Source: a virus
DNA: 64,000 bases
IMG/VR virus record: IMGVR_UViG_3300045988_165521
Strand: one strand, 5' to 3'
Position 1 is the stretch's first letter. The number at the start of each line of letters is the position of its first letter. The notes under the pieces were generated by a model. That model was not told where the DNA came from and did not search any database. It saw only the letters and a list, made by a program, of their open reading frames with translations. The translations under genes were made by a program, and so were the position numbers. Below, piece by piece: positions 7,094 to 45,370 of this stretch.

Positions 7094-7103
7094 CGGTCAA
7101 ATT

Positions 7104-7141
7104 ACAGTTAAGGGGTCGTGAGTACGGCCTCTTAACTGTTT
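7104..7141 (+). terminator. terminator-like long hairpin
   Basis: ACAGTTAAGGGG...CCTCTTAACTGT. The trailing T-run is weak. Confidence 0.5.
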
Positions 7142-7263
7142 AGAAACTAATATGGGTAGAATATATGTAGCTAATGCAGATAGCTGATATAGTAATCCAG
7201 AAAGTTTCTGAGTCCTTGAAAAAGGACGGTATGACATGTGGTACATTGTACGATGTGTCCATT

Positions 7264-7293
7264 GTCTATAAGTCTTTGATCGGACTTATAGGC
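7264..7293 (+). repeat. conserved-loop hairpin, copy A
   Basis: Stem CTATAAGTC/GACTTATAG around loop TTTGATCG. Confidence 0.8.
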
Positions 7294-7331
7294 CCTAGTG
7301 ATGATTTGATGAGTTTAGATGATTAGTGACC

Positions 7332-7368
7332 GTGGGAAGAGAAGTGATGAGCTCTTCCCACATTTTTA
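7332..7368 (+). terminator. rho-independent terminator
   Basis: Hairpin GTGGGAAGAG-aagtgatga-CTCTTCCCAC followed by ATTTTT. Confidence 0.75.
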
Positions 7369-7377: not shown

Positions 7378-7524
7378 ATGGATGCAATTAAAGTAATACT
7401 CGGTATAATCTTTGGCTTGATTATGCTTGGATGGATTGCTACAGTAATAGTCATGGCTTGTGGTCCTTGGGCAGCTGTAGTAATTGCCGCGATCGCTTTA
7501 ACTATATATCTTAACCGAGATTAA
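7378..7524 (+). CDS. small membrane protein (48 aa, below cutoff)
   Basis: Translation is MDAIKVILGIIFGLIMLGWIATVIVMACGPWAAVVIAAIALTIYLNRD. Confidence 0.4.
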   Translation: MDAIKVILGIIFGLIMLGWIATVIVMACGPWAAVVIAAIALTIYLNRD

Positions 7525-8180
7525 CTGCGATTGCATAGTAATAATAGTTCTTTGACATATTGACATGACAAAATGACAGAAACACCTGACAAAATGTCAT
7601 GTTGTGACTGAAGTAGAGGGTGAAGTGATCGGTGTAAGTCGTTGATTATCACACTGTTATTCATCCTCTACTCTTTTTAAAACTGTCAATTTGTCAGACC
7701 AACTTCCTTCATGTAAAATATCTATTATTCTCACATTCAGAAAGTTACTCCTCAATAATAATAATTTCAATTACTATTTTGAAGTTTAAACAATCGCTTT
7801 TGGTAATATTAGTTATTTTATAATTTGACAATTCAAAGTTTCAAACTTTAAACATACATAAACTCGAAATCCTGCTGATGATTACCAGAAACTAATGTCT
7901 GGATTTACTATGATTAGTTTACCTAATGTAAGTAGGGTTTAAACGAGTATAAATAAGACCCGAAATTGGCTTTTCACACTCGTCGAATAGTGTAAGGGAG
8001 CGAAGTACAGTAGGTCGACAAGTAATGTATATATTCCTTAACTGACTGTCACAAAGGAAGTGAGTACATTATGAGTTATATTATTGCTCAAGACGGTAGT
8101 AATAATTATTTAATGAATTGTGGAAGCGATATCTTTTCCAAATCACAATGGAACTTGGAGTTTCAAACATTAATCTATAT
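7525..8180 (+). ncRNA. ORF-free block A, candidate structured RNA or regulatory region
   Basis: No ORF of at least 60 aa in any frame. It contains a long hairpin (AGTAGAGGGTGAA...TTCATCCTCTACT plus T-run) and ends at a tRNA-like gene. Confidence 0.3.
7553..7696 (+). promoter_or_regulatory. cluster of TGACA/TGTCA pentamers, operator-like
   Basis: TGACA occurs at 7553, 7561, 7566, 7574 and 7587. The palindrome TGACAaaaTGTCA is at 7587-7599, and TGTCA recurs at 7684 and 7692. Confidence 0.45.
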
Positions 8181-8267
8181 CGCGGAGTGTATTGCGCATG
8201 GTAACTGGATAACCAGCCTGGGCCACGCATAACCCAGGAGATTCAGGTTCGAATCCTGACTCCGCAA
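8181..8267 (+). tRNA. tRNA-like gene with initiator-type hallmarks, an expanded D region and a 10-nt anticodon loop
   Basis: Acceptor CGCGGAG/CTCCGCA has a C1xA72 mismatch. The T arm is TCAGG-TTCGAAT-CCTGA. Stem CTGGG/CCCAG (three G-C pairs) encloses CCACGCATAA, which contains CAT. It is about 12 nt longer than a class I tRNA. Confidence 0.5.
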
Positions 8268-8355
8268 CTAATTTTCTTCATTATGGCATTTTTTATCTCT
8301 TTTAATTGCTCTTGTAATTATTATAGTATGAAAACGTAAGGAATAAATATTGGAT

Positions 8356-8440
8356 GCCGAGATGGCGAAATGGCAGCCGCAGGGGACTTAAAATCCCCTG
8401 GTCAGTAATGGCCGTACGGGTTCGACTCCCGTTCTCGGTA
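8356..8440 (+). tRNA. tRNA-Leu(TAA), class II
   Basis: Acceptor GCCGAGA/TCTCGGT (G1-U72). Anticodon arm is GGGGA-CTTAAAA-TCCCC, with a long variable arm and T arm ACGGG-TTCGACT-CCCGT. Confidence 0.9.
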
Positions 8441-8642
8441 CAAAAAATCCTATGAGTTCTGCAGAGCTTACATAGGTCGCATATGTGCCTCATCAGCCTT
8501 ATGTATGAGATAATAAGAGTGATTCTCAAACTTGATTAGGAAAATAGTTTTTTCTAGTTAGTGATTCTAAGTTATCCAGTGTACAATGAGATTATATGAA
8601 TCTTTTTAATAAAAGTCTAACAAAATTTTAATTTTAAATAAT

Positions 8643-8918
8643 ATGCTCTGTAAGAATAATATTTTTAAGCTTTTTGTTCAAGAATTTATTTTATTCTTGC
8701 ATACCAAAGACTCTGAAGAATTTTGTAAAAGACTTTGTAAAAAGCATAATTTCAAAAAAGAAGAATTTGAGGAATATTTTAAAATAGTCCAAGAAAAATT
8801 CAATGAAATACCTAGTGATCAAGAAATTGCATCTCAAGAATGCAAACAGTCTCAAATAAAAAATCAAGTTATTGAAACACTTGAAAAAGTTATTTTAGAC
8901 ATTAAAACTCTTAAATAA
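8643..8918 (+). CDS. hypothetical acidic protein (91 aa)
   Basis: ORF-track ORF with an ATG start. Confidence 0.55.
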   Translation: MLCKNNIFKLFVQEFILFLHTKDSEEFCKRLCKKHNFKKEEFEEYFKIVQEKFNEIPSDQEIASQECKQSQIKNQVIETLEKVILDIKTLK

Positions 8919-8948
8919 AGTTTAACAATATCTAAAATTGTAATTATG
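8918..8948 (+). promoter_or_regulatory. 31-nt conserved upstream cassette, copy 1
   Basis: AAGTTTAACAATATCTAAAATTGTAATTATG is identical to 11226-11256 and ends in the start codon of the downstream gene. Confidence 0.8.
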
Positions 8949-9194
8949 TTCATTTCTAAGAAAACTATGCGAAAGAAAGATTTCGCATGTCTCAAAGCAG
9001 AGAAGCCGAACTATAAGGCTTTTCGCGCACCGAAAGAAAATGCGAGACACAAGTTTCAGACGCTTTTCAAAACTCCTCGTGGCTGGTTTCTCAGCATGAT
9101 GCAAGACAAAAAGCGTGTGATCGGCGAAATCTCTGTTCCTGCAGCTCAGGAATGGCTCGACGAGTGTCATTTCAAATACGAAACTGGCTGGTAA
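8946..9194 (+). CDS. hypothetical basic protein (82 aa), GC-richer
   Basis: ORF-track ORF preceded by the conserved 31-nt cassette. Confidence 0.6.
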   Translation: MFISKKTMRKKDFACLKAEKPNYKAFRAPKENARHKFQTLFKTPRGWFLSMMQDKKRVIGEISVPAAQEWLDECHFKYETGW

Positions 9195-9230
9195 GCCACC
9201 TCCTTTCTTTGTAGTTAATGAATTCATAGC

Positions 9231-10368
9231 GAGAACCTTTGGGGCTATCTTGCCGTGACTGAACCATTAACAACGAGCAACCCTGGCACAACTCGTAAAC
9301 GCCAGGAACAGTCTATCTACACATAAGGTCTAAGGACTAATTTGTGAATATAAATCCTCCTCCCCAAGTTGAATTTTATTCCGAATTGGATAGTTAATAG
9401 AGATGTCTGCGTGAGCAGGATTGGTAGTACCCTCTATTGTTAAAACTGTTTCTTTTTGACATTTTTTATCTAAATATATAAATCTAGATTATGAAATTCG
9501 CAGTAGGCTAGCTTTAATGCTTAAAAGTTCTTAGTTTAATTTTATTTCCTCTGATTTAATTCGAGTGAACAAATTGCAGAAGTAACTCACCTGCACTAAC
9601 AAGCTAGAATATGAAAGCAAGAGACGGTCCGAATATGTAGGATTTATTTTTTATTCATAATAATTTATTTGGAGAAATTAAACATAAAAATGCCTAAGAA
9701 ATTAGGTGTGTTGAATAGGAAGGCACTTGTCCTATTGCACGCAAGTTAATTACGGTTATTTCTAATATATGCTAGCAACATTGATGTAATCCAATTAATA
9801 TTGCCTATATAAGAGATGCGGAAGACTGTTAAGTGTCGAACTACCAAGCGGTTTAACAGGGATAGAGACTCTATGGTAACATAGAGAATTTGCTGGATAG
9901 CGTGGATTCACATACGTAAATGTGGAGCAAAGGAAAATGGCAGAATTACCAAACTTCTTTTCAATAGGGACGAAATTTATCTATAGACAATAACCAGTTA
10001 GCTCGTAATGTCTGCCTTTCAGATTAGCTAGTCTAGAAAGTTGAGTGAGTTATATAGACAAGAAAAGAAGAAAACCCTCGAGTTAGAGGTCATATAAGAA
10101 TTATTATCTTACCTAGCTAGTAAGATTGATCTGTAATGTTGACTGTAGTACGACAGATGATCGTAATCTTATATGTTGATTAACCGTAACAGTAGTAATT
10201 GTAATTCTTTATTATTAAAGTTTTTACATGCTGGAGAGAAGGCAGAACTCTCTTTGGAATCTGTCGTTTAGGTATAGCTTCTTTGATCGGAAGCTATACC
10301 ACTAAAATGTCTGTAATTGCACTTTTTCATTTTAAAGAGAGTTTCCGATCTCTATAAAAATCGGATTC
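9231..10368 (+). ncRNA. ORF-free block B (about 1.1 kb), candidate large structured RNA
   Basis: All six frames are closed by TAA, TAG and TGA. G+C is intermediate. It contains hairpin copy B near its 3' end and is followed directly by tRNA-Glu. Confidence 0.35.
10271..10300 (+). repeat. conserved-loop hairpin, copy B
   Basis: Stem GGTATAGCTTC/GAAGCTATACC around loop TTTGATCG. Confidence 0.85.
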
Positions 10369-10443
10369 GCTCGGTTCGTCTAGTTGGCCTAGGACGCAAG
10401 ATTTTCATTCTTGAAATCACGGGTTCGAATCCCGTACCGAGTA
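10369..10443 (+). tRNA. tRNA-Glu(TTC)
   Basis: Acceptor GCTCGGT/ACCGAGT (G1-U72). D arm is GTC-TAGTTGGCCTAG-GAC, anticodon arm CAAGA-TTTTCAT-TCTTG, T arm ACGGG-TTCGAAT-CCCGT. Confidence 0.9.
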
Positions 10444-10478
10444 CATAAAATTGAAATCTAAAATTGACTAAAAGAGTA

Positions 10479-11006
10479 ATGGAAGTATATTTTGAAGGCA
10501 CTATAGGTATCCGAAAATGGTTGCGAATTCGAAAGAATCGCATCTCTACACTTGAAGAACTTACTAAGTTAGTAATCAAACACGAACCTCGTGAATTAAC
10601 TATTCACATCAATTCACTTGGAGGAAGTACATATCAAGCTTTAGCTATTTACTTCTATCTTCTTTCTCTTAGCATTCCAGTTACTACTTTTTGTCATGGT
10701 CAAGTGGCTTCTGCAGCAACTATTATTGCTCAAGCAGGAAAAAAGAGATATATGGATAAAGATGCAGAAATCCTTATTCATACTCCTCGGATTAATACAA
10801 GTAATGCAATTACTTTCAGACTTTTAGGTATTATTAAAGAAGATCTTGCATTTTCTAATAAAATACTTAAAACTATATTCAAAAGAAAGTCAGCTTTAAC
10901 TGAAAAACAAGTTGAAAGAGTCATGCACTTACAAAATGAAGAAGGCGTATGGTTGAACTACGAAACTGCACTTCAGTTTAAGTTAGTTGATGAACTTGAA
11001 GAATAA
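10479..11006 (+). CDS. ClpP-family (S14) serine protease-like protein
   Basis: Motifs INSLGGS, VASAATII (Ser) and ILIHTP (His) are in ClpP order. The track start 10464 is TTG; the first ATG is at 10479. Confidence 0.75.
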   Translation: MEVYFEGTIGIRKWLRIRKNRISTLEELTKLVIKHEPRELTIHINSLGGSTYQALAIYFYLLSLSIPVTTFCHGQVASAATIIAQAGKKRYMDKDAEILIHTPRINTSNAITFRLLGIIKEDLAFSNKILKTIFKRKSALTEKQVERVMHLQNEEGVWLNYETALQFKLVDELEE

Positions 11007-11030
11007 TATGTATTTTCCATAGTTAGTAGC

Positions 11031-11083
11031 TGGATCTTAGTGAGAGTGAGCTACCTCTCTGAGCTTAACTAAGATCCATTTTT
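11031..11083 (+). terminator. rho-independent terminator
   Basis: Stem TGGATCTTAG...CTAAGATCCA followed by TTTTT. Confidence 0.7.
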
Positions 11084-11225
11084 AGAAACCCCTGTTTGCA
11101 TTTGATTATATAACACACCTAGTTCCATATAACTTTTCAGTTGGCATTAGTTAGATGAAAACTACGATTTTAATCCAGCGAGCGATAGTGTGGTTGCCAT
11201 GACCTGGAGATTTTTAAAATCCTTT

Positions 11226-11256
11226 AAGTTTAACAATATCTAAAATTGTAATTATG
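11226..11256 (+). promoter_or_regulatory. 31-nt conserved upstream cassette, copy 2
   Basis: Identical to 8918-8948 and ends in the ATG of the ParB-like gene. Confidence 0.8.
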
Positions 11257-11982
11257 TCTAAAGATCTTTTTTCGAGTCGTACTCCCTTTGAGAAGTGTTA
11301 TCTCGTAGAAAACGTAAAACATCTTTCGTTCATTCCAGGGAATCGTACTCTGAGAACAGCTCATGTAAATCGAATCTTCAAAGCTTTTCTCGATGGAGAG
11401 TGGATGCCGCCTATCTATGTTTCTGCAGACGGTGAAGTTCTCGATGGTCAGAATCGTCTCGCAGCATTTCGTATGCTGAAAGAGAAGTATCCGCAGAACA
11501 AAACTGCAATTCGAGTGATTATTATCAACTCGGATGCATCTCCTCTGAATCTCGCAATCAAGTTCAATGCAGGACATGCAAACTGGGTAATCACTGACTA
11601 CATGAAAGCTTATCTGGAAAAAGGTCTTCATGGCTATCAGCAGCTCCAGGATTTCACGAAAGCTTTCCCTGAGTTCGAATTCAAGGCAGCTATTCAACTG
11701 ATCAAGGGTTCGCACTCTTCGAGAAAGTTCAATAACGGTCTCTTAGAGATCTCTAACGAAGAGTACATGGAAGCATGTAAGAAAGCTGCTGCTCTCATTC
11801 AGATCGCAGAAAAGTTGAACAATAAGATCGTCCTTCGACGAGACATTGTTCTCGCTTTCTATCATGTCTGGAACAAGATTCCTAATATTCAAACGTATCT
11901 CAAACGTATCGGTAATCTTCAGGTTCCGAGCGTTGAGAATCGTAAGGAGTGGGAACTTGCATATAGTGCTCTGTTGCGATAA
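11254..11982 (+). CDS. ParB/sulfiredoxin-fold nuclease-like protein (DGQxR motif)
   Basis: IPGNRTLRTAHVNRIFKAFLDGEWMPPIYVSADGEVLDGQNRLAAF matches the ParB N-terminal / DGQHR-type pattern. Codon usage is GC-richer. Confidence 0.7.
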   Translation: MSKDLFSSRTPFEKCYLVENVKHLSFIPGNRTLRTAHVNRIFKAFLDGEWMPPIYVSADGEVLDGQNRLAAFRMLKEKYPQNKTAIRVIIINSDASPLNLAIKFNAGHANWVITDYMKAYLEKGLHGYQQLQDFTKAFPEFEFKAAIQLIKGSHSSRKFNNGLLEISNEEYMEACKKAAALIQIAEKLNNKIVLRRDIVLAFYHVWNKIPNIQTYLKRIGNLQVPSVENRKEWELAYSALLR

Positions 11983-12138
11983 TTTCTGGTTTTTATTTGT
12001 TAATCGGCACGTTAATAGAGTTTACTCTATGCCTACTACCACTCGAAGGTGTGATTAACAAGGGTCGCCTAGCGTCCTTGTATGAACGTAGGTCGGTGAT
12101 GGTCACTATCTCAGCCTCGCCATAACAACTTTAAGAAA

Positions 12139-12507
12139 ATGAATAATTTAGGTAAAGCTATAGGATTAATTCTCTTCATGGGAATTATTCTGACTTCCTG
12201 TTTATTACTTGTTTCTAAACCTAAAGATCAAGTAGTAACTATTACAGAGTTTCCTCAGGATGGAGTAAAAGTATCTAAAGTAGCTCCTATTTCTGAGTTC
12301 GAACGTAATCAGATTACAATATCTGTAATGCATGAACTTGATTCACTCGATAATATTTATCGAGTAGAAGCAGGTATGCAAAAGATTCCTGCTGAAGTAT
12401 TCGATAACTACTGTATTGAAGTAATGAATCACTACAAAGGTCAGATTCGAAGTATCTTTTATGATCCTTTAGAAAATCCTCGTATAAAAATCAGATGGGT
12501 TAATTAA
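12139..12507 (+). CDS. membrane-anchored hypothetical protein (122 aa)
   Basis: ORF-track ORF with an N-terminal TM segment (LILFMGIILTSCLLLV). Confidence 0.6.
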   Translation: MNNLGKAIGLILFMGIILTSCLLLVSKPKDQVVTITEFPQDGVKVSKVAPISEFERNQITISVMHELDSLDNIYRVEAGMQKIPAEVFDNYCIEVMNHYKGQIRSIFYDPLENPRIKIRWVN

Positions 12508-12509
12508 CT

Positions 12510-12698
12510 ATGATTATTTCTTGTATTACAACAGCTTCTAATAAAGCTGTACTCATTAAAGGAATTCCTTTTCGTATTGTTCAAATTAAAGGCTTTGTTG
12601 TAAATACAGAGACAAATCAAGTTCTTCACATTTGCATTAACAGATTGTATGATTTGTTAATGACTTGTTGTTTATACGAAAAAGTCTTTACAGAATAA
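12510..12698 (+). CDS. hypothetical protein (62 aa)
   Basis: ORF-track ORF with an ATG 3 nt after the upstream stop. Confidence 0.35.
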   Translation: MIISCITTASNKAVLIKGIPFRIVQIKGFVVNTETNQVLHICINRLYDLLMTCCLYEKVFTE

Positions 12699-12742
12699 TG
12701 TAGGAAGTTGTATCTATAATTAATAATAAATAAATTAACAGT

Positions 12743-12937
12743 ATGAAGGGTGGAAAACCTGGACTGAATGTCCGTCGCAAAGGTGCTCTTGCTCGCCTGG
12801 AAGTTACGTATGAAGCTTTCAAAAAAGCAGGTGAAGACAAAAGGAATTTGATTACGGGAAAAACTATTCCCTACGATCAAGAAATCGCACGCATGGAGCG
12901 TGAGATTGCAACACTCAAATCTCGAATCTATAACTAA
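12743..12937 (+). CDS. hypothetical basic protein (64 aa), GC-richer
   Basis: ORF-track ORF. TTAACAGTATG lies upstream, as at 17570. Confidence 0.55.
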   Translation: MKGGKPGLNVRRKGALARLEVTYEAFKKAGEDKRNLITGKTIPYDQEIARMEREIATLKSRIYN

Positions 12938-12951
12938 AACAAAGAAAGAAG

Positions 12952-13155
12952 ATGTCAACGATTGGACAGGTAAGACGCATGCTTCGTATTCAGGCACTCG
13001 AAGCTGCAAAACGTGAGGATTATCGAACACGTACTCGTGTTCAGAAAATCTATATCAAGGATAAGATTACGAGGAATATCACTATAAAGGAGATTACTCA
13101 TTTTCCTAAGAAGGAAGAGACTCCTGCAGAGGTAGAAACTCAGGTAACTGAATAA
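12952..13155 (+). CDS. hypothetical protein (67 aa)
   Basis: ORF-track ORF. Confidence 0.5.
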   Translation: MSTIGQVRRMLRIQALEAAKREDYRTRTRVQKIYIKDKITRNITIKEITHFPKKEETPAEVETQVTE

Positions 13156-13417
13156 AATTACGTATACTTTCAGGCTTCAGTAAAAGATTTGGTGAATTTA
13201 GATGATTCCACTGCTGTACAGAATTTTTCTGTTAGGATAACATAAGGCAGCATAATTGATTCTAATACTTGCATCCTTGAGAGTTCGAACTGTATCAATG
13301 ACCAAATAAGAGATACAGATTTTTAATAAAATATAGGCTGCAACCTATTTGGGACGCTAACGGATATTATTATGATGTTGTTGCAGTAAAACATATAGTA
13401 AGAAGGTTAGTGAAAAG

Positions 13418-13487
13418 ATGTGAATAGCTCAGTTGGTAGAGCGGCAGGTTGTGCTGAGGGTCGCAGGTTCGAGTCCTGTTTCACATC
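13418..13487 (+). tRNA. tRNA-like gene with a truncated anticodon arm (14 nt instead of 17)
   Basis: The acceptor (ATGTGAA/TTCACAT), D arm (GCTC-AGTTGGTA-GAGC) and T arm (GCAGG-TTCGAGT-CCTGT) are all regular. Only GCAGGTTGTGCTGA lies between position 26 and the variable loop. Confidence 0.45.
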
Positions 13488-13507
13488 CAAAATTAAAAAT
13501 TAAAATT

Positions 13508-13723
13508 ATGTTTTGGTTTATATATAAAATAACTCTCGTAGTTATTGTAATGATAATAATTGCAGTATACTTTAAAGATCGAGAACTTTTCAAGTCGCAA
13601 ATTTTTAACTTATTTACGACAGGAGAATTTATTATCTTATTGACTCCCATTATCAATACACTTCTTATTATTTATGGTGTATATAGAGCCATTCAAATTA
13701 CAACTAAAAATGGTAGGAAGTAA
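13508..13723 (+). CDS. membrane protein (71 aa)
   Basis: Track ORF 13433..13723 begins inside the tRNA-like gene. The first ATG after it is at 13508 (MFWFIYKITLVVIVMIIIAVYF...). Confidence 0.5.
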   Translation: MFWFIYKITLVVIVMIIIAVYFKDRELFKSQIFNLFTTGEFIILLTPIINTLLIIYGVYRAIQITTKNGRK

Positions 13724-13877
13724 ATATTGTGTAGAATATTATTTTTATAACGAGGATAATTTACCAGTTCAAAGTTTTGCTTTTGTTATTGCAACTTCTG
13801 ATGAGGAAGCAATACAAAAAGCACAAAATTATTCTACAAGTAAAATAACAATTATATCTTGTACTAAATACGCTTAG
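13710..13877 (+). CDS. hypothetical protein (55 aa)
   Basis: Track ORF 13674..13877. An ATG at 13710 gives a short overlap with the upstream gene. Confidence 0.45.
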   Translation: MVGSKYCVEYYFYNEDNLPVQSFAFVIATSDEEAIQKAQNYSTSKITIISCTKYA

Positions 13878-13966
13878 GCATGGAAGATATTGAGACGAAT
13901 GATATTGGGCAATCTTTAGTAGATGAATTTGTCGATGATAATGCTATTGAAGCTCAAGAAAAATAG

Positions 13967-15453
13967 CCTACGGACTTAAGAGGGTTAACACAAACCTAAA
14001 CTATTATGGATAAACCCATAATTCAATTATAATAAGCCTATAATGAATTTGAGGGGAGTTAAGGCAATTCTGAACAATTAAAACCAGCCGTATCCTAACT
14101 TCAACATGGTCTGTCAGTTTAGTGTTGAAGGAATAAGTTCTGTAATTATTTAGGGTGAACCATTTGAAGAAGTTGTAATTCTTCTACGATGACTTGTGTC
14201 GTATAATAAAAGAACAAGATCTATGTACAGTTGCATGGATTACTCCGTGAGATTCGGAGAGTTAAACTGCAGGTCAATAGAAGTGGTTAATCTATTGATG
14301 AGTCCTTTGTCTACTAAGGGAGTCCACTCGTTATAAGTTTAGAGGGAAGGAGTAGAATAACTTGAGTCGAGGCCATGAGTATTTAGTTAGCATGAGTTAT
14401 ATTATCCCAGATTAACAAATGTGTAAATACAAAAGGTACAGCAAGGATATCTCTAATTGAATAACTTTACTTCTAAATTCTGTAGTTTAGGTTTAGAGAT
14501 CTTTTAATAGGGAAAGCCAGCTTATTATAACGAAATTAATACCACTGCAAGGGCATGCGTTACAGAGTGGTATTTTTAATAGAATGTGTTAAATATTATA
14601 TAACTGATAACAATGGGAGTAGATGCTTAGTTCTACAAAAATCTCTATCTGATAAGCTTATGATCCTGCCAGTGATTAAGTAAAACAGAGATGCCTTGGC
14701 AGAGGCTGCAACGGCTAGCAGATCATAAGAGATCCTAGTATCGGGCGGAGGGAAGTTGCATACGTAAGTACCTCTAATTTTTTAAATCCTTCTGATCAAG
14801 CCTATGAGTAGATGAAGGTGCATAGTGACAGTAGGCTGCTTGATCTATGTTTAAGGTGGTTGACTAAGAGACGAATGCAGTAAAAGACTGGCCCGAGAAG
14901 GTCAGTAGAGTAGGGGCGGAGCCTACCGTAGTCACAATGAAAAACGAAAAGATTAAGTTGTCGCAAGGAAACTTACACTTAGTAGTTTATAAGAGCAAAC
15001 AGACGTCAAGCAATGTACAGATTAAATGATGTTTGGGAAAATAGAAACTATTAGTAGCTGTAACTACGAATGTTTGATGTAGCAGTCAATTGCATATGAG
15101 AGGTCATATGATTGATAGCCAAATGAATATCTGCTCTTATTGATAAACATGCCTGTACAAGTAATATCGAAGGTTGCACACGGATGATACGAAGGTTAAA
15201 GAGCTGGTGCAATAAGCTCATAATTAGAATTTATCTAGCTGGAATGTTTATCACTTTTTACCTATAACACTTTGATCGGTGTTATAGGTCCTAGAAAATA
15301 ATAGAGATAGGTGGCAAAGTCTGAAGATTCGAAAGAATATATGGCAACAGTACCTAGCTGTAGGGTTGTAACCATTGTGAGGTCACATTTTAGATGATCC
15401 AAACGTACAGTCTATCTCTTTTATTTTTTTAAGAAAATAATTATGGTAAAAAT
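13967..15453 (+). ncRNA. ORF-free block C (about 1.5 kb), candidate large structured RNA(s)
   Basis: It is the largest ORF-free stretch, with stops of all three kinds in all frames. It has many local and long-range complementarities (for example AGAGATAG at about 15304 with CTATCTCT at about 15411, then a T-run). It contains hairpin copy C. Confidence 0.35.
15260..15289 (+). repeat. conserved-loop hairpin, copy C
   Basis: Stem ACCTATAACAC/GTGTTATAGGT around loop TTTGATCG. Confidence 0.85.
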
Positions 15454-15696
15454 ATGAAAAAGTTACTCATTGTACTCGCATTATGTGTATTTGCAGTATC
15501 TTGTTGTGAAGTAGACCACAACAATTCTCAGAAAAAAGAACCAGAAAAGATTACTGCAACTTCCTTTAAAGTTTATACACAAAGAGGAAGTCTTGTTTGT
15601 GAATACTATGAATTCATATATCATGGGCATAAGTATATTACAAACTATGGAGAAAAATTTTTACTTCATTCTCCTGAGTGTTCTTGTCAGTATTAG
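15454..15696 (+). CDS. putative lipoprotein (80 aa), paralog of 39418..39636
   Basis: Signal peptide with lipobox-like VFAVSC. The C-terminal region (GH.Y...H.P.C.C) is shared with 39418..39636. Confidence 0.6.
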   Translation: MKKLLIVLALCVFAVSCCEVDHNNSQKKEPEKITATSFKVYTQRGSLVCEYYEFIYHGHKYITNYGEKFLLHSPECSCQY

Positions 15697-15699
15697 TTT

Positions 15700-15999
15700 A
15701 TGGAAAATAAAAGTTTACGAGCTCTTGCAATATTTATTATAATAGGTTTTGTCTTTATAGTAAATTTTGCTTTTTTTGGAGTTCAAGGTAGAATTACTGA
15801 AGACTGGACAGATAAGTTTACAAAAGAGATTAACTATCTTGAATATAAGGTAGATTCTTTAGAAAAGGTAGTTAATAGTAATCTTACACATCGTCGTGAT
15901 ACATTAATCATTGATGTACGCCCTCAAACAATCAAAATTTATCAACCTAATGGAAATAGTATTAATAATAATTCTAGTATTGCTAGTACTCCAAGATGA
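15700..15999 (+). CDS. membrane-anchored hypothetical protein (99 aa)
   Basis: ORF-track ORF ending in TGA. Under TGA=Trp it would run to the TAG at 16021-16023. Confidence 0.55.
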   Translation: MENKSLRALAIFIIIGFVFIVNFAFFGVQGRITEDWTDKFTKEINYLEYKVDSLEKVVNSNLTHRRDTLIIDVRPQTIKIYQPNGNSINNNSSIASTPR

Positions 16000-16009
16000 C
16001 GATTAAACT

Positions 16010-16165
16010 ATGTGGTTCTTTAGATTTGCAATTATTCTCTTAGAATTTTTATTTATTTTTTATTATACTGCAGTTGTTTTTCAACTGTTAGATGTATGGA
16101 AAATAACTAATCGTAAGATAACATGGAAGGCTATTATACCTTTCTATTACTTTATTAAGAGGTAG
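16010..16165 (+). CDS. small membrane protein (51 aa, below cutoff)
   Basis: Translation is MWFFRFAIILLEFLFIFYYTAVVFQLLDVWKITNRKITWKAIIPFYYFIKR. Confidence 0.35.
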   Translation: MWFFRFAIILLEFLFIFYYTAVVFQLLDVWKITNRKITWKAIIPFYYFIKR

Positions 16166-16270
16166 AAAATATATGGCGCCTCTATTTATAATTCTTGTAA
16201 TCTGTTTATTGATATTATTAATAGATTGCTTTAAAAACAAAAGAAAACATTAATCACTTTATAAAATCAT

Positions 16271-17449
16271 ATGAATTTAAAAAAGATTATTGCTGTCTTC
16301 GTGGCAGTGTTCGCAGTTTTCTGCGTTGTGTTTCTCGGTAAGATTGGAGAGGATGTGAAGAACGAAACTATTGTGGTCAACCAGTACCCCCTTACGGGTA
16401 ACATGGAGTATTGGACGACGCCTGGCTTCCACTGGCAGTGGTGGGGTAAGACGACGGTCTATTACAAGACTCAGCAGCTCTGGTTCGGATCTGACAACGA
16501 TGCTGGTCAACAGATGGGAAGTCCTATTCCCGTGATCTTTAATGATGCGTCGGATGGTATGGTGTATGGTTCACTTCGAGTTAAACTCCCTACTGATCCT
16601 AAGTATCTAGCACGTATTCAGACGGATTATAACGGTATGGATAGGCTTATTAATGACCTCGTTCGGCCTACTGTTACCAAGGTTATTTATGCGTCTGGTC
16701 CTCTGATGTCTGCATTTGAATCTTATGCTGAAAAGAAGAACGACCTTATTGAGTATATCACTGACCAGCTCAATAATGGTGTATACAAAACTTCTGTAAA
16801 GCGAGTTGAGATTCTGGATGCAATTTCAGGAGATAAAAAGCTGGTTAATATTGCAACTCTTATCCCTGATTCTCTCTCTGCTGGTGGATACAAACGTAGT
16901 GAATCTTCGCCGTTTGCCTACTATGGTTTAGAGATCGGTCAGGTAGCAGTTTCTAAAATTGACTATTCTGAAACAGTTAAGAAGCAGATTGCTCAGCAAC
17001 AGAAAGCAAACATGGATATCCAGACTGCAAAGGCGCAAGCCGCTGCTGCTCAACAGGATGCAATTAAGGCAGAGGAGCTTGGTAAAGCTGCTGCTATGAC
17101 TGCAAAGTGGGAGCAGGAAAAAGTAAAAGCAGTCGAGGTAACTAAGGCTCAACAGGCTTATGAAGTAGCATCACTTGCTGCTAAAGAAGCTATGGAAAAT
17201 GCAAAGAAAGTGAAGGCTGAAGGTGATGCAGAAGCATTCCGTCAGGCAGCATTAGTACGTGCAGGTCTTAGTCCTAAGGAAAAGGCAGAGATTGAGATGC
17301 AAACGAAGATTGGTGTAGCTGAAGCTTTATCGAAGCTGGAACTTCCTAAAATTGTTATGGCTGGTGGAAACACTAGTAATGGCAATGCTGCCATGGATGC
17401 GATGGGACTTAAGATGGTATCGGATCTTGTAGATAAGATGTCGAATTAA
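16271..17449 (+). CDS. SPFH/Band 7 (prohibitin/HflK-like) domain protein
   Basis: An N-terminal TM is followed by an SPFH-like core and an Ala/Gln/Lys-rich coiled coil (QQQKANMDIQTAKAQAAAAQQDAIKAEELGKAAA). Codon usage is GC-richer. Confidence 0.8.
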   Translation: MNLKKIIAVFVAVFAVFCVVFLGKIGEDVKNETIVVNQYPLTGNMEYWTTPGFHWQWWGKTTVYYKTQQLWFGSDNDAGQQMGSPIPVIFNDASDGMVYGSLRVKLPTDPKYLARIQTDYNGMDRLINDLVRPTVTKVIYASGPLMSAFESYAEKKNDLIEYITDQLNNGVYKTSVKRVEILDAISGDKKLVNIATLIPDSLSAGGYKRSESSPFAYYGLEIGQVAVSKIDYSETVKKQIAQQQKANMDIQTAKAQAAAAQQDAIKAEELGKAAAMTAKWEQEKVKAVEVTKAQQAYEVASLAAKEAMENAKKVKAEGDAEAFRQAALVRAGLSPKEKAEIEMQTKIGVAEALSKLELPKIVMAGGNTSNGNAAMDAMGLKMVSDLVDKMSN

Positions 17450-17493
17450 GTTCTTTAAGGCTAGGGAGGAGCCTACGGCAATCCTCCCAACAA

Positions 17494-17564
17494 ACAGAAG
17501 TAGTTCAATGGTAGAACGTAACACTGATAAGGTTAAAATAGGGGTTCGATTCCTCTCTTCTGTT
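17494..17564 (+). tRNA. tRNA-Ile(GAT)
   Basis: Acceptor ACAGAAG/CTTCTGT. D arm is GTTC-AATGGTA-GAAC, the anticodon loop is CTGATAA, T arm is AGGGG-TTCGATT-CCTCT. Confidence 0.85.
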
Positions 17565-17580
17565 CTAATTTAACAGTATA

Positions 17581-17796
17581 ATGTTTAAGAATATGTTAAA
17601 GTTTAGAGGTAAACAACTTGCAAGTGGTGCAGTTGTAAATGAAAGGATGTACTATTATGTTCTTGATGCACTTGATAGTAATAAAGACATAACTCTTACT
17701 TCTATTCTTGGAGTTGAAGTGAGTCGGTGTAACGATTTAACTAAAGAACAGTTAGAACAAGTTTTTGATTACTTAGTTGAAAAGGAATTAGAATAA
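17581..17796 (+). CDS. hypothetical protein (71 aa)
   Basis: ORF-track ORF. Confidence 0.5.
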   Translation: MFKNMLKFRGKQLASGAVVNERMYYYVLDALDSNKDITLTSILGVEVSRCNDLTKEQLEQVFDYLVEKELE

Positions 17797-17825
17797 AAAT
17801 ATCATTCATTAAATAAAAAGAAACG

Positions 17826-17990
17826 ATGGCAAAAATGAACATGAAGGCTATTACGATGGCTTTCAAAGAAGTTCTTCTCGATGAGGAGGGAAATCCTGTA
17901 AAGGATAATGAAGGTAAACCTGTTTATGTACGTGTGTTCCGAAAGGTTCGCCACAATGCAGCATACTTTCCCCGCACTTATCGCCGTTAG
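17826..17990 (+). CDS. small basic protein (54 aa, below cutoff), GC-richer
   Basis: Translation is MAKMNMKAITMAFKEVLLDEEGNPVKDNEGKPVYVRVFRKVRHNAAYFPRTYRR. Confidence 0.45.
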   Translation: MAKMNMKAITMAFKEVLLDEEGNPVKDNEGKPVYVRVFRKVRHNAAYFPRTYRR

Positions 17991-18540
17991 GCAGAAAATC
18001 CTACCTGCTTCACCAAAGGTGTAGTCCCTGTAATAGAACGTTACAGTTTTCTCTATTAAATATATGGAAAAACCATATATAAGAGAAGGAACCCATACTA
18101 AAACTATGAAGTTCTAAAAGGACGATAAACATTGCCTACATCTCTTTGATCGGAGGTGTAGGCTCTATTTTTTACCTATTTTCAAACGAATTCGTTAGGA
18201 GAAAGCAGAGCCTCTAATGCTTACGCAATAAGTATTATGCAGAAAACGCGACTAAAACTTGATTCCACAAGTGTTGAATTTTGTTGATTAAACGATACCA
18301 GATAGAGTGGCTCATACCCACAAACCTGAATTAAACTACATGATCGTAAAGTGTAGATTCTCCTGTAGGCATACAGGCTGTTATTGTTTACCCATTGGAA
18401 GGCGTGGGAATAGGTAGAGTTAAGGAGGAAGGTTAGTCTACTGGTGTATAGTAGTATAGAGAACATGGCCCAGTACTAGGCTGAATAATAGCCCATGTTA
18501 GCACACCTTAACTTTTTAATTATTAAATTTCTATTAAGTT
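17991..18540 (+). ncRNA. ORF-free block D, candidate structured RNA
   Basis: There is no sense ORF (the 18221..18466 minus ORF looks spurious). It contains hairpin copy D followed by a T-run. Confidence 0.3.
18134..18163 (+). repeat. conserved-loop hairpin, copy D
   Basis: Stem GCCTACATCTC/GAGGTGTAGGC (one G-U pair) around loop TTTGATCG, then TCTATTTTTT. Confidence 0.85.
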
Positions 18541-18761
18541 ATGGAAGAAGATTTTGATGGAAATCAAATATTAGGAGTAGGACTATTAATAGTAGCTGCA
18601 CTTGCAGCAATAATTCTAGCTCTAATGTAATCACATAAGTACTAAGCGAAAGCCGAGCGATGAGGGTTCATCTTCCTAATACGCGTTAAAGCTCCCGAGA
18701 GGTATCAGAACTGAGAATCAGAGTATGTTAAGTCTCAAAACGAAGAACAGTACTTATTTTA

Positions 18762-18835
18762 GGGCCCTTAGCTCAATTGGTTAGAGCAACTGACTCATAA
18801 TCAGTAGGTTATCAGTTCAAGTCTGGTAGGGCCCA
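18762..18835 (+). tRNA. tRNA with CAT anticodon, most similar to tRNA-Ile2 (lysidine type); Met not excluded
   Basis: GGGCCCTTAGCTCAATTGGTTAGAGC...CTCATAA...AGGGCCCA closely parallels E. coli ileX (GGCCCCUUAGCUCAGUGGUUAGAGC...). Confidence 0.9.
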
Positions 18836-19170
18836 CTATATTAAAGTTATCTGAGGTAGAAGGAAAGTACCGCTCTGTACTGAACACGGACAGGTAGAAG
18901 GTGGAAGTGAATTCCTTAAATCTCTTAGGTGTTCAGCTGAGGTTTAAGAAGGTTCATGTGTAAGATAACTTTAATTTAAACTAGCTCGCCGTCTCACCTT
19001 TCATTGGAAAGATAGTGTACCGTATATTTAGTTCTAGTACATGAAGGAGACATACTTCGAGGATAATCTGGAGGTCGCGAACGAAAGATGAAAGTAAGAT
19101 GTTAGATAGGGCCTGGTAATACAGGGGAACTGAGAGCGAGACTCAGGATGGACACAAAATTTTTAGTAAA
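18836..19170 (+). ncRNA. ORF-free block E with long-range inverted repeats
   Basis: TTAAAGTTATCT (about 18841) pairs with AGATAACTTTAA (about 18966). No ORF is present. Confidence 0.3.
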
Positions 19171-19470
19171 ATGATAACAAAAGAAGATATAATTCACTGG
19201 TTTGAAGCTCTCAAAAATAAATGTGATAAAGTAACAACAGGCAATTGTTCTCATGAAGTTAATTCGATTCGTTTCTTAGCATCTAATTGGGCGGATAAAA
19301 TGAAGAAAGAGCAAGGAGAAACTATGTTTTATCATAATTTCATTGGTATATCTGAAGTTTGTGTTAAGATAACTTCTGGAAATCTTGCTCATCATATAGC
19401 AACGATTAAAAGAATGTGTACTCGAAATATAGAGTTCATTGAAAAGTATGGAATAGAAGAAATAAGTTAA
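19171..19470 (+). CDS. hypothetical protein (99 aa)
   Basis: ORF-track ORF. Confidence 0.55.
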   Translation: MITKEDIIHWFEALKNKCDKVTTGNCSHEVNSIRFLASNWADKMKKEQGETMFYHNFIGISEVCVKITSGNLAHHIATIKRMCTRNIEFIEKYGIEEIS

Positions 19471-19472
19471 GT

Positions 19473-20165
19473 ATGAGTAGTTATTATCAAAAAATCAATA
19501 CTCTCTATAAAAGAGATATGACAAAACCTAAGAAACCGATAATTCTTGGAGAATATTCGGAATCTGAGTTTGAAGTTCTTAAAGATCTTAAATGGGAAGC
19601 TACTGAAAAGATTGATGGAACTAATATGTCTTGTTGTTTTCATCCAGGTCTAAGAATGATTGAAATTCGAGGCAAAACTGAAAATGCAAGCATTCCCACT
19701 CACTTACATAAGCGAATGGAGGAATTGTTTCAGTTTGATCTCTTATATAAAGCTTTCGGAGTACAAACAGAAATAGGAGAAACTGTTTATCCTGAAAAAG
19801 TAGAAATCTTTGGAGAAGGGTATGGCCTAAAGATTCAAAAAGGTGGAAACTATATTAAAGATCATTGTGATTTCATTTTGTTTGATATAAGAATTCTTAC
19901 ATCTACAGGTGAATCTCTTTGGTTAACTCGAGAAGCATGTGAAGATATTGCTAAAAAGCTTAATCTTAAAATTGTTCCTTTAGTAGGTTATATGACTATT
20001 AAAGAAGCTGAGGATTTTGTAAAAGCAGGTTTCAAGTCTTTAATTGCAGAAAATAAAGACTATATTGCTGAGGGTCTTGTACTTAAAGCACCTTGTGGTC
20101 TATTAAATCGCAGAGGTAAGAGAATTATTACAAAGATTAAGTATTGCGATTATAAAGATCTTTAA
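19473..20165 (+). CDS. ATP-dependent RNA ligase-like nucleotidyltransferase
   Basis: Motif I is EKIDGTN (KxDG). Downstream motifs FGEGYG and ILFDI follow in ligase order. It is a small (230 aa) Rnl-type protein. Confidence 0.75.
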   Translation: MSSYYQKINTLYKRDMTKPKKPIILGEYSESEFEVLKDLKWEATEKIDGTNMSCCFHPGLRMIEIRGKTENASIPTHLHKRMEELFQFDLLYKAFGVQTEIGETVYPEKVEIFGEGYGLKIQKGGNYIKDHCDFILFDIRILTSTGESLWLTREACEDIAKKLNLKIVPLVGYMTIKEAEDFVKAGFKSLIAENKDYIAEGLVLKAPCGLLNRRGKRIITKIKYCDYKDL

Positions 20166-20166
20166 T

Positions 20167-20343
20167 ATGAGAGCCCTCAACATTTTAGTACTATTAGCAA
20201 TTGTATTGCTACTCTTTCTTTTAATAATTGTTTTAATAGGATATATAATGTTTAAAGCGTCTATTTGGTTAGGTGTTGGATATATTATGATTCTTATTGC
20301 AATTATTATATATCTTTTATACAAACAAATAGAAAAATACTAA
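20167..20343 (+). CDS. small two-TM membrane protein (58 aa, below cutoff)
   Basis: Translation is MRALNILVLLAIVLLLFLLIIVLIGYIMFKASIWLGVGYIMILIAIIIYLLYKQIEKY. Confidence 0.4.
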   Translation: MRALNILVLLAIVLLLFLLIIVLIGYIMFKASIWLGVGYIMILIAIIIYLLYKQIEKY

Positions 20344-20347
20344 ACAT

Positions 20348-21214
20348 ATGACTGAAAAGAATAAAGTCTTTTTTGCAGCAGATGGTATTACTGCTACTTC
20401 TGCAAATCATCTCTGCAACATAGGTAAAGAATATGTTGCATCTGCTCACAGTCGTCTTGATAACATTCGATTTATCACTACAACTGTAGAAACATTAAGT
20501 GCAGACAACCGCATTACTCTCTCGCAAGGATTAAATTCTGCAGAAGTACTTTCTTTAAAAGAAGAGATCAGAAAAATTGCTGAAATCAATGCATTTATTG
20601 CATATATGCGAGAGGCAATTAAAGCAAAAGATGCTGAGCATCGTGCTGTAAAAGAGCTTTCTTTTAAGGATTGGTGCGAGCAGGAAAGTATTACTCTTCC
20701 TGAATATCCCGCTAGTCCTAAGTATCCTTCTTTTGAAGATATCTTAGGAGAGTTAGATATCAAGGAGCGTAATCGTTATTACACTCTTGGGGCAGAAGCT
20801 GCTATCATTGGTAAGCAGATTCATCCTCGTGGTGCTATTCATGAAGCACGTGAAAAGCTGTTTGATGCAATATCAAATCCTGCGTTAGTAGAAGATGATA
20901 AAGTTTATCGTCATGTTGCATCAGTAAAACAGGAAGAAGTTGAAGAACTTTACTTTGAGCTGCAAAAGCAACATCGTGCTGTTGAAGCAAGTCTCAATGC
21001 CATTAAAGGTTCTATTGATCAACGTGTTGCAGAAGAAACTGCAAAACTTGATACAGAAACTGCAGTTAAATTCAAGCAATATTCAAATGAAATAGAGCTT
21101 TTGAATAAGCAGTTTACAACCTGGAAAAATGAGGAAATAAGTAAAATTGGTAAACTTCGGATTATAATTCCGAATGAACTGAAAGATACTTATGATTTCT
21201 TAAGTTCTCTCTAA
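20348..21214 (+). CDS. hypothetical protein (288 aa), GC-richer
   Basis: ORF-track ORF with an ATG start. Confidence 0.7.
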   Translation: MTEKNKVFFAADGITATSANHLCNIGKEYVASAHSRLDNIRFITTTVETLSADNRITLSQGLNSAEVLSLKEEIRKIAEINAFIAYMREAIKAKDAEHRAVKELSFKDWCEQESITLPEYPASPKYPSFEDILGELDIKERNRYYTLGAEAAIIGKQIHPRGAIHEAREKLFDAISNPALVEDDKVYRHVASVKQEEVEELYFELQKQHRAVEASLNAIKGSIDQRVAEETAKLDTETAVKFKQYSNEIELLNKQFTTWKNEEISKIGKLRIIIPNELKDTYDFLSSL

Positions 21215-21964
21215 TAGGTAGATAGATGCTATACTGTATTTTCATCAGTATACTCTATCTTTTACATAGGACTAAATCCTACAAGATATATTGTGTGTTA
21301 TACGCGTGTTGCGGATAATACAAATATAGACAAACACTTGCTCTAGTAAAGCACATGTATGCTAAGCATTATTAGTATTGTACAAACTTGTGAAATACTT
21401 CAAATATAAATATAATTGACTTTGTTTTTAGCTTTGAGAAGTATTTCGTCATGGTCATTGTTTTTACTTTTGCCTCTGTTAGGATTTAGTCCTATGACTA
21501 TTTCTTTATATACCTGCTGACTCCTGCGGTATAGAAAATGGGTAGTTTTCCTTCGACTATATGTAAGGGTATGTAACTCAGTGATACTTAAGACTGAGGG
21601 AGTTAAAACTAATCTTAAAAGTTTGGTAGATTGGCTATTAGATCCCCACAAGAAATAGCCCTCCGCGATGTTCAGGCAACTTCACGCGTATCTGAAGTAT
21701 CCCTATCGTCTTTCCTAGGACATTAAACAAGGATCTTGAGCCTATCGAGAATACGGGGCAATTCGGTCGGTTTTTTCATGTTAGGTTCCGCAGAAATAAA
21801 GAACATGCTATGTAGTTTCCATCGTGAAATAATAGCCGCGGTTAGTGTTTTCACACTAATCTCCGTTATAATTAGAGTAGGGATACTCTAGACTACAAGC
21901 TTGGAGTTCCACAAGTTTAAAAAAGAATCCTACTAGGGAGGTGATGGTTAATTTCTCCCTGCTC
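21215..21964 (+). ncRNA. ORF-free block F upstream of the tmRNA
   Basis: No credible ORF (the minus-strand ORFs 21400..21651 and 21856..22044 lack support). G+C is intermediate. Confidence 0.25.
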
Positions 21965-22342
21965 GGGGCTGCTAGGTATTTGATCCTAATGTCAAGTAAT
22001 ATCAATCGTGTCGAGTTTGATTCATACTCGTAAAACAGATTCAAACAATAAACGCAAATAACATTTTTTCGCGCATTATCAACAAGGTTGAGACGGCGCT
22101 GTTTGGCGACATTGAAGGAGTAGCTTTAATAGCTGCGTAAATCAATGGGAGGTTCGTCACTCTTAAACTGGCGAGAACAACACTTCCTTTCAAGGTTTGG
22201 CTTCGTTCCTTAAAAATGAGCTGGTGGATGGGTCACCTTCGGGTACCCCTATTGGGTAGTTCCAATTAAAACAAAACTAACACACGTAATAAGTTGATAT
22301 TAGGAGAATTAGGAGACACGCGTTCGATTCGCGTCAGCTCCA
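21965..22342 (+). ncRNA. ssrA: tmRNA (transfer-messenger RNA)
   Basis: 5' GGGGCTG pairs with 3' CAGCTCC, including G3-U70, and is followed by A73. The T arm is ACGCG-TTCGATT-CGCGT. The ends resemble E. coli GGGGCUGAUUCUGGAUUCGAC and ...CCAGCUCCACCA. An internal frame ...GDIEGVALIAA-TAA (stop at 22138-22140) looks like a tag. Length is 378 nt. Confidence 0.85.
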
Positions 22343-22350
22343 CTATTTAA

Positions 22351-24676: not shown

Positions 24677-24738
24677 AGCAATCTCTCGGAGTAGAGGCTG
24701 TCATGAAATCGAGACAGGTTGTCACTAAGTAACAATAT

Positions 24739-24810
24739 ACTCTCGTTGTTCAAGGCATAGGACGCAAAACTACGGATTTTGTAATAGAGGTTGGATTCCT
24801 CTCGAGAGTG
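24739..24810 (+). tRNA. tRNA-Arg(ACG)
   Basis: Acceptor ACTCTCG/CGAGAGT. Anticodon arm is CAAAA-CTACGGA-TTTTG. The T loop TTGGATT is unusual. Confidence 0.85.
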
Positions 24811-24833
24811 CAGACGTTTAATTTTTACACACT

Positions 24834-36613: not shown

Positions 36614-36626
36614 ATATTAATGGTTT

Positions 36627-36698: not shown

Positions 36699-36720
36699 CT
36701 AAAGTGAATAATGAATATTG

Positions 36721-45295: not shown

Positions 45296-45303
45296 ATAAT
45301 CTT

Positions 45304-45347: not shown

Positions 45348-45370
45348 TTGTATTTTTAATAAAATTTTTG

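Follow-up and report, generated by a model that had tools for sequence, protein, structure and literature searches.

Candidate structured RNA genes within a mosaic of non-coding modules in the tRNA island of a human-gut phage

The window analyzed here is a 64,000-nt stretch of viral DNA (IMG/VR record IMGVR_UViG_3300045988_165521). Its tRNA island extends from 7.1 to 22.3 kb, and the phage is a large one from the human gut, with a host that is probably a member of the Bacteroidota. Within this island are six blocks described as free of open reading frames (ORFs): A (7525-8180), B (9231-10368), C (13967-15453), D (17991-18540), E (18836-19170), and F (21215-21964). A preliminary description tentatively interpreted them as a family of long non-coding RNAs that are processed from precursors shared with adjoining tRNAs, a tRNA-like gene, or the transfer-messenger RNA (tmRNA). 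From the comparison with related phages, we consider it likely that the blocks are instead arrays of independent RNA modules, shuffled as cassettes and often so at the ends of tRNA genes, and that two of these modules, C1 in block C and D1 in block D, are structured-RNA genes. Thus, the earlier proposal seems correct in that the island contains non-coding DNA, parts of which would yield structured RNA from the + strand, but not in that these form a family of long precursors.

The relatives were collected with the SPFH-domain protein of the window (16271-17449) as query, which retrieved 29 loci from IMG/VR contigs. In addition to a close clade at 92-100% DNA identity, these include divergent lineages, of which an L014-type and an L022/L026-type lineage (protein identity about 74%; L numbers designate individual loci) were used in the comparison. 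Further probes brought the related loci to >150, and every metagenome contig with a named source among them derives from the human gut. The contigs of the relatives span ~100-175 kb in IMG/VR, the longest being about 175 kb. A megablast search of INPHARED returned no DNA-level match for the window, i.e. no close cultured phage, and the nearest relative at the protein level is Bacteroides phage BS162P1 at 33% identity. The ORF-poor pattern recurs in divergent relatives with tRNA islands (relatives of three lineages); two more distant relatives, L025 and L027, are densely coding.

Conservation and covariation of C1 and D1

C1 is the best-conserved DNA of the whole neighborhood, exhibiting 82-83% identity in the L014 lineage compared to 76-77% for the SPFH gene DNA there. 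Its conservation is patchy in the style of a structured RNA, with invariant single-stranded stretches between variable stems, and one variable hairpin has been swapped for a shorter one in the L022 lineage. We tested a fold of 98 pairs in 15 helices against 23 distinct sequences, using slid pairing partners as controls. The fold includes two long-range helices as well as two crossing hairpins whose loops pair mutually in a pseudoknot or kissing-loop arrangement. Paired cells amounted to 96.8% versus 38-51% in the slid controls, 20 pairs were changed on both sides versus 1-6, and the covariation score was 0.215 versus about 0.06. C1 is also furnished with an intrinsic terminator at 14538-14577, which consists of a hairpin plus T-run and has a covarying stem.

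D1 yielded a similar picture. Its fold of 51 pairs (outer stem, three-way junction, and terminal hairpin) was tested on 14 distinct sequences and gave 99.7% paired cells versus 36-56% in slid controls, with double changes at 15 of the 51 pairs versus 0-4. The RNA would end in a copy of a recurring hairpin (18134-18163) followed by a U-run, the two together forming a terminator at 18134-18173, and the homology between relatives stops at this point. D1 lies directly 3' of a conserved 54-amino-acid ORF (17826-17990) and is better conserved than that ORF, being nearly invariant while the ORF varies at synonymous-type sites. It is found on 33 or more viral contig stretches, among them a few contigs of ~105-170 kb that were new to the searches, and in the relatives it is followed by a protein gene. 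The 54-amino-acid ORF encodes a basic protein without a Pfam or PHROG match and always precedes D1; the two may constitute a protein-RNA pair. A terminator/antiterminator alternative was considered for D1 and dropped, as the variants in the alignment give it no support.

When cells within the predicted pairs had changed, 95% of them in C1 and 98% in D1 were still canonical, as compared to 34-85% in coding controls. Because many G-U pairs are invariant, both RNAs can be assigned to the + strand. Judged from these alignments, C1 appears to be a stand-alone structured-RNA gene on the + strand with its own terminator, and D1 likewise appears to be a + strand structured-RNA gene that carries a terminator of its own.

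C1 is limited to a narrow group of phages. Its homologues were found only in three lineages of gut phages among the viral, metagenome, and genome collections probed, and five additional matches in Flavobacteriaceae were dismissed as chance because they fall inside a protein gene. An Rfam search with 13900-15460 alone (E<=10, 1.5-kb query) gave no match for C1, with neither the GOLLD covariance model, with its conserved 3' domain, nor that of ROOL yielding a hit. T-box-like and RNase P-like resemblances seen in C1 were rejected as they are not kept between lineages (by eye, in the alignment), and inspection by eye found no conserved Bacteroidota-type -7 box upstream of it. Even among close relatives, C1 is missing in 8 of 16, which carry a ~65-nt short form instead. 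In this form, the first hairpin of C1, whose GUCGUAA loop is conserved and whose stem covaries, leads straight into a T-run (e.g. L002 8262-8352, in place of window 13993-14666). Since half of these relatives lack it, C1 is an accessory RNA.

Coding capacity of the blocks

With regard to coding capacity, the preliminary description was accurate, as the longest ORFs inside the six blocks encode 30-56 amino acids on the + strand, plus two of 81 and 83 amino acids on the minus strand. Plus-strand ORFs of >=60 amino acids cover 45-61% of 8-24 kb versus 76-96% of 36-52 kb, and about a third of the 7.1-22.3 kb region encodes no protein. The blocks had also been said to alternate with GC-richer genes, which we did not observe. 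Their GC content of 32-40% (window mean, 31.6%) equals or exceeds that of most small flanking genes (26-37%), and only the gene at 6620-7093 and the SPFH gene are richer.

That the blocks harbor unannotated genes for small proteins, or genes read in an alternative genetic code, is highly improbable, even though a genuine small gene does occur at a block edge and recoding is known in gut phages (PMC10879173). The gene in question, the 28-amino-acid ORF 13880-13966 just ahead of block C, is coding, as its substitutions fall 7/1/27 by codon position with a clear third-position bias. Hydrophobic mini-ORFs at 7378-7524 and 18543-18632 would also fit with small proteins, and a minus-strand ORF of 81 amino acids may be present within the D2 stretch of block D (18221-18466; substitutions 9/6/17, which is ambiguous). 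However, the frame at 18543-18632 contains in-frame stops in relatives (a count that may reflect alignment ends), the minus-strand ORF 21400-21651 is non-coding, with substitutions of 12/11/13 by codon position plus indels, and the conservation of C1 and D1 tracks helices rather than codons. A reassignment of stop codons is excluded because TAA, TAG, and TGA each occur many times in all six frames of every block, and no suppressor anticodon is present among the 27 tRNAs of the window.

Other searches for content in the blocks were similarly unproductive. The two in-block ORFs scanned against Pfam and PHROG gave no signal, and tblastn with all ORFs of the relatives, which could have exposed decayed protein genes, returned only trivial stop-to-stop matches. 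No known RNA family was matched in the blocks with Rfam, whether at the gathering threshold, at E<=10, or with a small query; a sigma-70 promoter scan found no more matches than in shuffles; and neither tandem repeats nor ToxI-like arrays were found in the blocks. Among close relatives, substitutions affect 1.1-4.9% of block sites versus 5-17% of third codon positions in most neighbors. This low divergence suggests some purifying selection overall, with the comparison being confounded by mosaicism.

Mosaic modules and the tRNA-tethered precursor model

The blocks have no mutual similarity except for a ~40-nt hairpin motif, so that paralogy between them is ruled out, and rather than a family of long non-coding RNAs they are mosaics of unrelated modules. 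Comparison with divergent lineages breaks every block up into short modules (60-460 nt) that are conserved amid unalignable DNA, namely 7859-8027, 9212-9490, 9821-10002, 13913-14577, 14648-14890, 17991-18176, 18224-18524 (patchy), and 21216-21520. The structures of C1 and D1 are conserved in related phages. The modules occur at different places, or are missing, from lineage to lineage. Among close relatives, we counted 36 homology break-points in 22 kb (window 6000-28000), of which 9 are located <=15 nt from the end of a tRNA, the tmRNA, or the hairpin versus 1.3 expected. Because break-points are enriched at the ends of RNA genes, tRNA genes act as cassette boundaries, and the arrangements in which a block abuts a tRNA would at least in part be a by-product of recombination at these ends. 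The modules would then evolve separately while recombination shuffles them as cassettes, often at tRNA-gene ends.

Such mosaicism could also be expected if the blocks were mostly neutral DNA, i.e. scars of recombination, what is left of mobile elements (introns, homing-endonuclease cassettes, or dead tRNAs), and spacers between cassettes. We regard this as possible, yet on balance doubtful. In its favor, the 36 break-points were counted between relatives of 92-99% identity, entire segments have been exchanged or are missing (7965-8355, 9461-10369, 13993-14666, 18172-18425, and 18848-18990), the C2b element of block C is a dead tRNA, relatives carry group I introns, and homologues of A0, the middle of B, D2, and F2 were detected in the close clade only. 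Conversely, C1, C2a, D1, B1, and B2 are kept across lineages with about 74% protein identity, C1 and D1 exceed the adjacent coding DNA in conservation and do so with compensatory changes, and the substitution rates of all blocks are below those of neighboring third codon positions.

Several observations do weigh against an array of functional RNA modules. The covariation rests on 3-4 lineages and the folds were derived from the same sequences on which they were tested; C1 is dispensable, given its replacement by the ~65-nt form in 8 of 16 close relatives, and its local folding-energy z-scores are unremarkable; the structure statistics of A1, B1, B2, F1, and F2 are no better than those of coding controls; and several stretches are found only in near-identical relatives and may be neutral. 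The number of compensatory pairs reported by RNAalifold is also unspecific, as coding controls give 4-13 pairs per 300 nt, and we discarded such counts as evidence for A1, B1, B2, E, and F1, which score like the controls. Sliding-window folding z-scores were uninformative in general, because the tmRNA and C1 both look ordinary and only hairpin-containing stretches stand out.

The model put forward in the preliminary description was that each block and the tRNA, tRNA-like gene, or tmRNA downstream of it form one precursor, from which cleavage by RNase P (or RNase Z) frees a long RNA. Precedents for non-tRNA RNA freed by tRNA-processing enzymes include the stable RNAs released from the tRNA operons of phage T4, such as the species 1 and 2 RNAs, and handles of the MALAT1-mascRNA type, all of which employ the same mechanism. 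Some of the geometry agrees with it. Block B ends exactly at tRNA-Glu (10369) and block F exactly at the tmRNA (21965), as had been stated, everything is on one strand, and neither the last ~90 nt of B nor the last ~440 nt of F contains a hairpin-plus-T-run. RNA-based processing of tRNA ends is furthermore present in this phage group, since L022 carries a theta ribozyme at the 3' end of tRNA-Met (PMC10879173). Nonetheless, we consider the model unlikely. Internal terminators divide blocks C and D as well as the stretch before block A (7333-7366), and C1, C2a, and D1 each end in an intrinsic terminator, a covarying hairpin with a T-run behind it, rather than at a tRNA. Block D was correctly placed short of its tRNA, ending 221 nt before tRNA-Met(CAT) at 18762. 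Neither C1 nor D1 is beside the 5' end of a tRNA in any lineage; C1 has a tRNA no more than 640 nt away in all lineages, but in the relatives it is located about 450-600 nt downstream of that tRNA, and D1 there precedes a protein gene, so the linkage of RNA and tRNA is not conserved. The blocks are not homologous to one another, the stretch from the hairpin at 10271-10300 to tRNA-Glu differs even among close relatives, and the role of tRNA ends as recombination break-points offers a non-functional reason for the abutment. Unlike the T4-type RNAs, the best-supported RNAs here are furnished with individual terminators and have no tRNA next to them. Cotranscription with release by RNase P is possible in two places, namely over the final ~90 nt of B ahead of tRNA-Glu and over 21521-21964 ahead of the tmRNA.

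The initiator-like tRNA that was thought to follow block A is not a tRNA according to either ARAGORN defaults or Rfam. The element at 8181-8268 combines a 7-bp acceptor stem and a good T-arm (UCAGGUUCGAAUCCUGA) with one additional hairpin, and a loop of 10 nt replaces the anticodon loop; it has no match to the Rfam tRNA model even at E<=10 and is called by ARAGORN only at an 80% threshold. Only a few close relatives have it. The 26 tRNAs called by ARAGORN, one tRNA found only by Rfam, and the tmRNA are all on the + strand of the window. The Rfam-only tRNA (36627-36698) scores 51.5 bits and is missed by ARAGORN. Another tRNA (13418-13488) has an abnormal anticodon loop, for which ARAGORN gives a 2-nt "anticodon" and no amino-acid identity; it scores 48.8 bits with Rfam and is kept in close relatives.

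The remaining modules are listed in Table 1 and vary in their conservation. Within block C, the C2a hairpin GCCU-UGGCAG-AGGC covaries to GUCU/AGAC, and the RNA would end in a hairpin plus T-run around 14745-14783. The C2b element of the window is not detected with the Rfam tRNA model (threshold, 29 bits) and receives no default call from ARAGORN; its homologue in L022/L026 (8978-9050) passes that model with 44.6/42.7 bits. The adjacent stretch 14946-15453 is shared only at >=75% identity. Ahead of block A, A0 has local folding z-scores of -4.6 to -6.8, is carried only by close relatives (>=97% identity), and ends in a terminator (GTGGGAAGAG...CTCTTCCCAC, then a T-run). Block A itself shows little deep conservation. 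Many close relatives have other DNA in place of the part from about 7965/8016 to 8355. A TGACA/TTGACA direct-repeat cluster at its start (7553-7604) is a possible operator or promoter array. In block B, compensatory changes were seen by eye in several hairpins of B1, and B2 has a hairpin in which the ACGWAA loop is conserved and the stem covaries (CACAT/ATGTG, CATAT/ATATG, and CATGT/ACATG). The first half of block E (about 18848-18990) is swapped for a second tRNA-Met gene in some close relatives, and an apparent covariation in this block proved to be an artefact of misalignment with a tRNA gene. In block F, the F1 arms show correlated changes in L022/L026, where F1 directly precedes the tmRNA. 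A1, the middle of B, D2, E1, and F2 could be lineage-specific leaders, promoter regions, or remnants.

Table 1. Positions of RNA genes, modules, and hairpin copies in the window
Feature	Position	Strand	Remarks
A0 folded non-coding stretch	7094..7366	+	after gene 6620-7093; contains hairpin copy 1
Hairpin copy 1	7264..7293	+	11-bp stem, loop UUUGAUCG
Block A proper	7525..8180	+	TGACA direct repeats, AT-rich stretch, partly conserved module 7859-8027
Non-canonical tRNA-like element	8181..8268	+	fold z-score -3.4; relaxed ARAGORN only
B1 conserved non-coding module	9212..9490	+	also in L022/L026 lineage; nhmmer E=2e-17
B2 conserved non-coding module	9821..10002	+	at other positions in L021, L015, L012; nhmmer E=3.5e-20
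Hairpin copy 2	10271..10300	+	68 nt upstream of tRNA-Glu
tRNA-Glu(UUC)	10369..10444	+	adjoins block B; ARAGORN, Rfam
C1, predicted structured RNA gene	14124..14582	+	about 455 nt; >=15 helices; conservation and paired changes
C2a small conserved RNA	14640..14783	+	about 140 nt; alignment; nhmmer matches in all three lineages
C2b decayed tRNA	14861..14934	+	acceptor-like, anticodon-arm-like, and T-arm-like stems remain
Hairpin copy 3	15260..15289	+	block C, stretch 14946-15453
D1, predicted structured RNA	17991..18176	+	about 185 nt; three-way junction; terminal hairpin and U-run
Hairpin copy 4	18134..18163	+	D1 terminal hairpin
D2 variable stretch	18177..18540		18172-18425 replaced in several close relatives
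tRNA-Met(CAU)	18762..18836	+	between blocks D and E; ARAGORN, Rfam
Block E	18837..19170	+	second half conserved among close relatives only
Terminator of gene 20348-21214	21217..21264	+	intrinsic; stem covaries with L022/L026 lineage
F1 inverted-repeat element	21265..21496	+	22-nt arms 21265-21286 and 21475-21496; T-rich conserved 188 nt inside
F2 insert	21521..21964	+	445 nt between F1 and tmRNA; close relatives only
tmRNA	21965..22343	+	adjoins block F; without intron in window

Some further features of the window are of note. An exact direct repeat of 32 nt at 8918-8949 and 11226-11257 runs into the ATG of ORF 8946 and of ORF 11254, respectively, where it ends, and a 72% copy at 8613-8644 stands ahead of ORF 8643; the repeat, which contains TAAAATTG, similar to the Bacteroidota -7 box, is probably a shared promoter or 5' leader. 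Additional stretches without a + strand ORF of >=60 amino acids are located at 52369-53745 (1.4 kb, with no RNA gene called inside), 61696-63156, 36370-37182, and 45296-46097. The radical-SAM gene (23762-24676, stretch 23769-24813) is shared by only some of the close relatives.

A recurring hairpin and comparison with known phage RNAs

The sole motif shared between blocks contains a 30-nt hairpin, which has four copies in the window, all on the + strand near module 3' ends; all copies in the 12 oriented sources scanned are likewise on the + strand. Across loci, we found 29 distinct versions, of which 23 have an 11-bp stem, five a 12-bp stem, and one a 10-bp stem. The stem combines CUAUA/UAUAG with four freely covarying pairs, the 8-nt loop UUUGAUCG never varies, and about 75% of the versions have NCUA as their 3' flank. 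A pattern scan matched 69 viral contig stretches, some on contigs that other searches had missed. Since a U-run is missing after three of the four window copies, the hairpin is more than a terminator, and the invariant 8-nt loop, fixed 11-bp stem, and conserved NCUA flank set it apart from intrinsic terminators. It could serve as a recognition or 3'-end-stabilizing element for an RNA-binding protein or nuclease of the phage or host. Four positions of the loop (UU.GA) are as in a T-loop, and the palindrome GAUC occurs within it.

Two types of ribozyme share the niche of this locus. Theta ribozymes process the 3' ends of tRNAs in Bacteroidota-associated gut phages, often together with an RNA ligase of the DRB0094 family (PMC10879173), and both theta and pistol ribozymes occur in tRNA regions of such phages, including the present relatives. 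Pistol ribozymes lie upstream of tRNA-Glu in L022 (1161-1230) and L026 (1627-1696), and a strict motif scan located a theta (minimal hepatitis delta virus-like) ribozyme at 17587-17650 of L022, directly 3' of tRNA-Met. The window itself has neither, as there was no Rfam match in it for the pistol ribozyme (RF02679) and no match to the theta motif in strict or relaxed scans (P1-P2-P3-L3-P1.1-P4-J4/2 motif of Kienbeck et al., with G1 required at the tRNA 3' end). Theta ribozymes moreover act at the 3' ends of tRNAs, not at the 5' ends. The window gene 19473-20165 encodes a Pfam RNA_ligase domain. The group I intron (RF00028) was also without an Rfam match in the window. Most close relatives carry an insertion of ~755 nt near the 3' end of the tmRNA, at window position 22330, which Rfam identifies as a group I intron (L007 18564-18791, 75 bits); with 44 bits, a match in L022 (6865-7059) stays below the gathering score of 50. 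These ribozymes and introns occupy corresponding positions of the relatives' tRNA islands.

Among the large RNAs of phages, GOLLD and ROOL have been described as lying frequently close to tRNA islands (PMC12286853, PMC5737381). C1 resembles them in its tRNA-island context, its multi-helix and pseudoknotted complexity, and its dispensability, but matches no Rfam model and is about 455 nt, whereas they are about 580 nt and over 800 nt. Its helix layout differs from that of ROOL, which has six multistem junctions along with three pseudoknots in about 580 nt, and unlike both it is so far confined to one group of human-gut phages. D1 shares with small RNAs derived from 3' untranslated regions and with intrinsic terminators its place immediately behind a small ORF and its terminal hairpin with a U-run. 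A catalogue of 10,006 viral candidate structured RNAs has entries of 29-151 nt (PMC10690425), and it could therefore include pieces such as the hairpin, but not the whole of C1. With no Rfam family matching either one, C1 and D1 appear to be new RNA classes of a known kind, the phage tRNA-island RNAs. They may be stable non-coding RNAs during infection that occupy the same niche as GOLLD and ROOL, which could involve translation or a tRNA-related takeover of the host.

We find it quite improbable, though worth stating, that C1 is a new large ornate RNA class parallel to GOLLD and ROOL, which would self-assemble or act as a ribozyme on tRNA or the translation machinery, with the UUUGAUCG hairpin as a shared handle for processing or assembly. 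As a speculative extension, the hairpin would mimic the minihelix of a tRNA acceptor and T-arm (for RNase P, RNase Z, or the CCA-adding enzyme) or function as a GAUC kissing module. If true, this would rescue the idea of a processing handle, with the hairpin in place of the tRNA.

Under the preferred interpretation of shuffled, independent modules, an ORF-free block beside a tRNA can stem from cassette recombination and need not signify co-processing, which calls for caution whenever such arrangements are encountered. The locus would add at least two RNA classes without an Rfam family, together with a recurring hairpin, to the RNAs of phage tRNA islands. As these phages are abundant in the human gut and C1 can be compared between natural strains that carry its long or its short form, the group offers a compact natural test bed for the roles of island RNAs, to which the pistol and theta ribozymes and intron-bearing tmRNAs of the relatives further add value.

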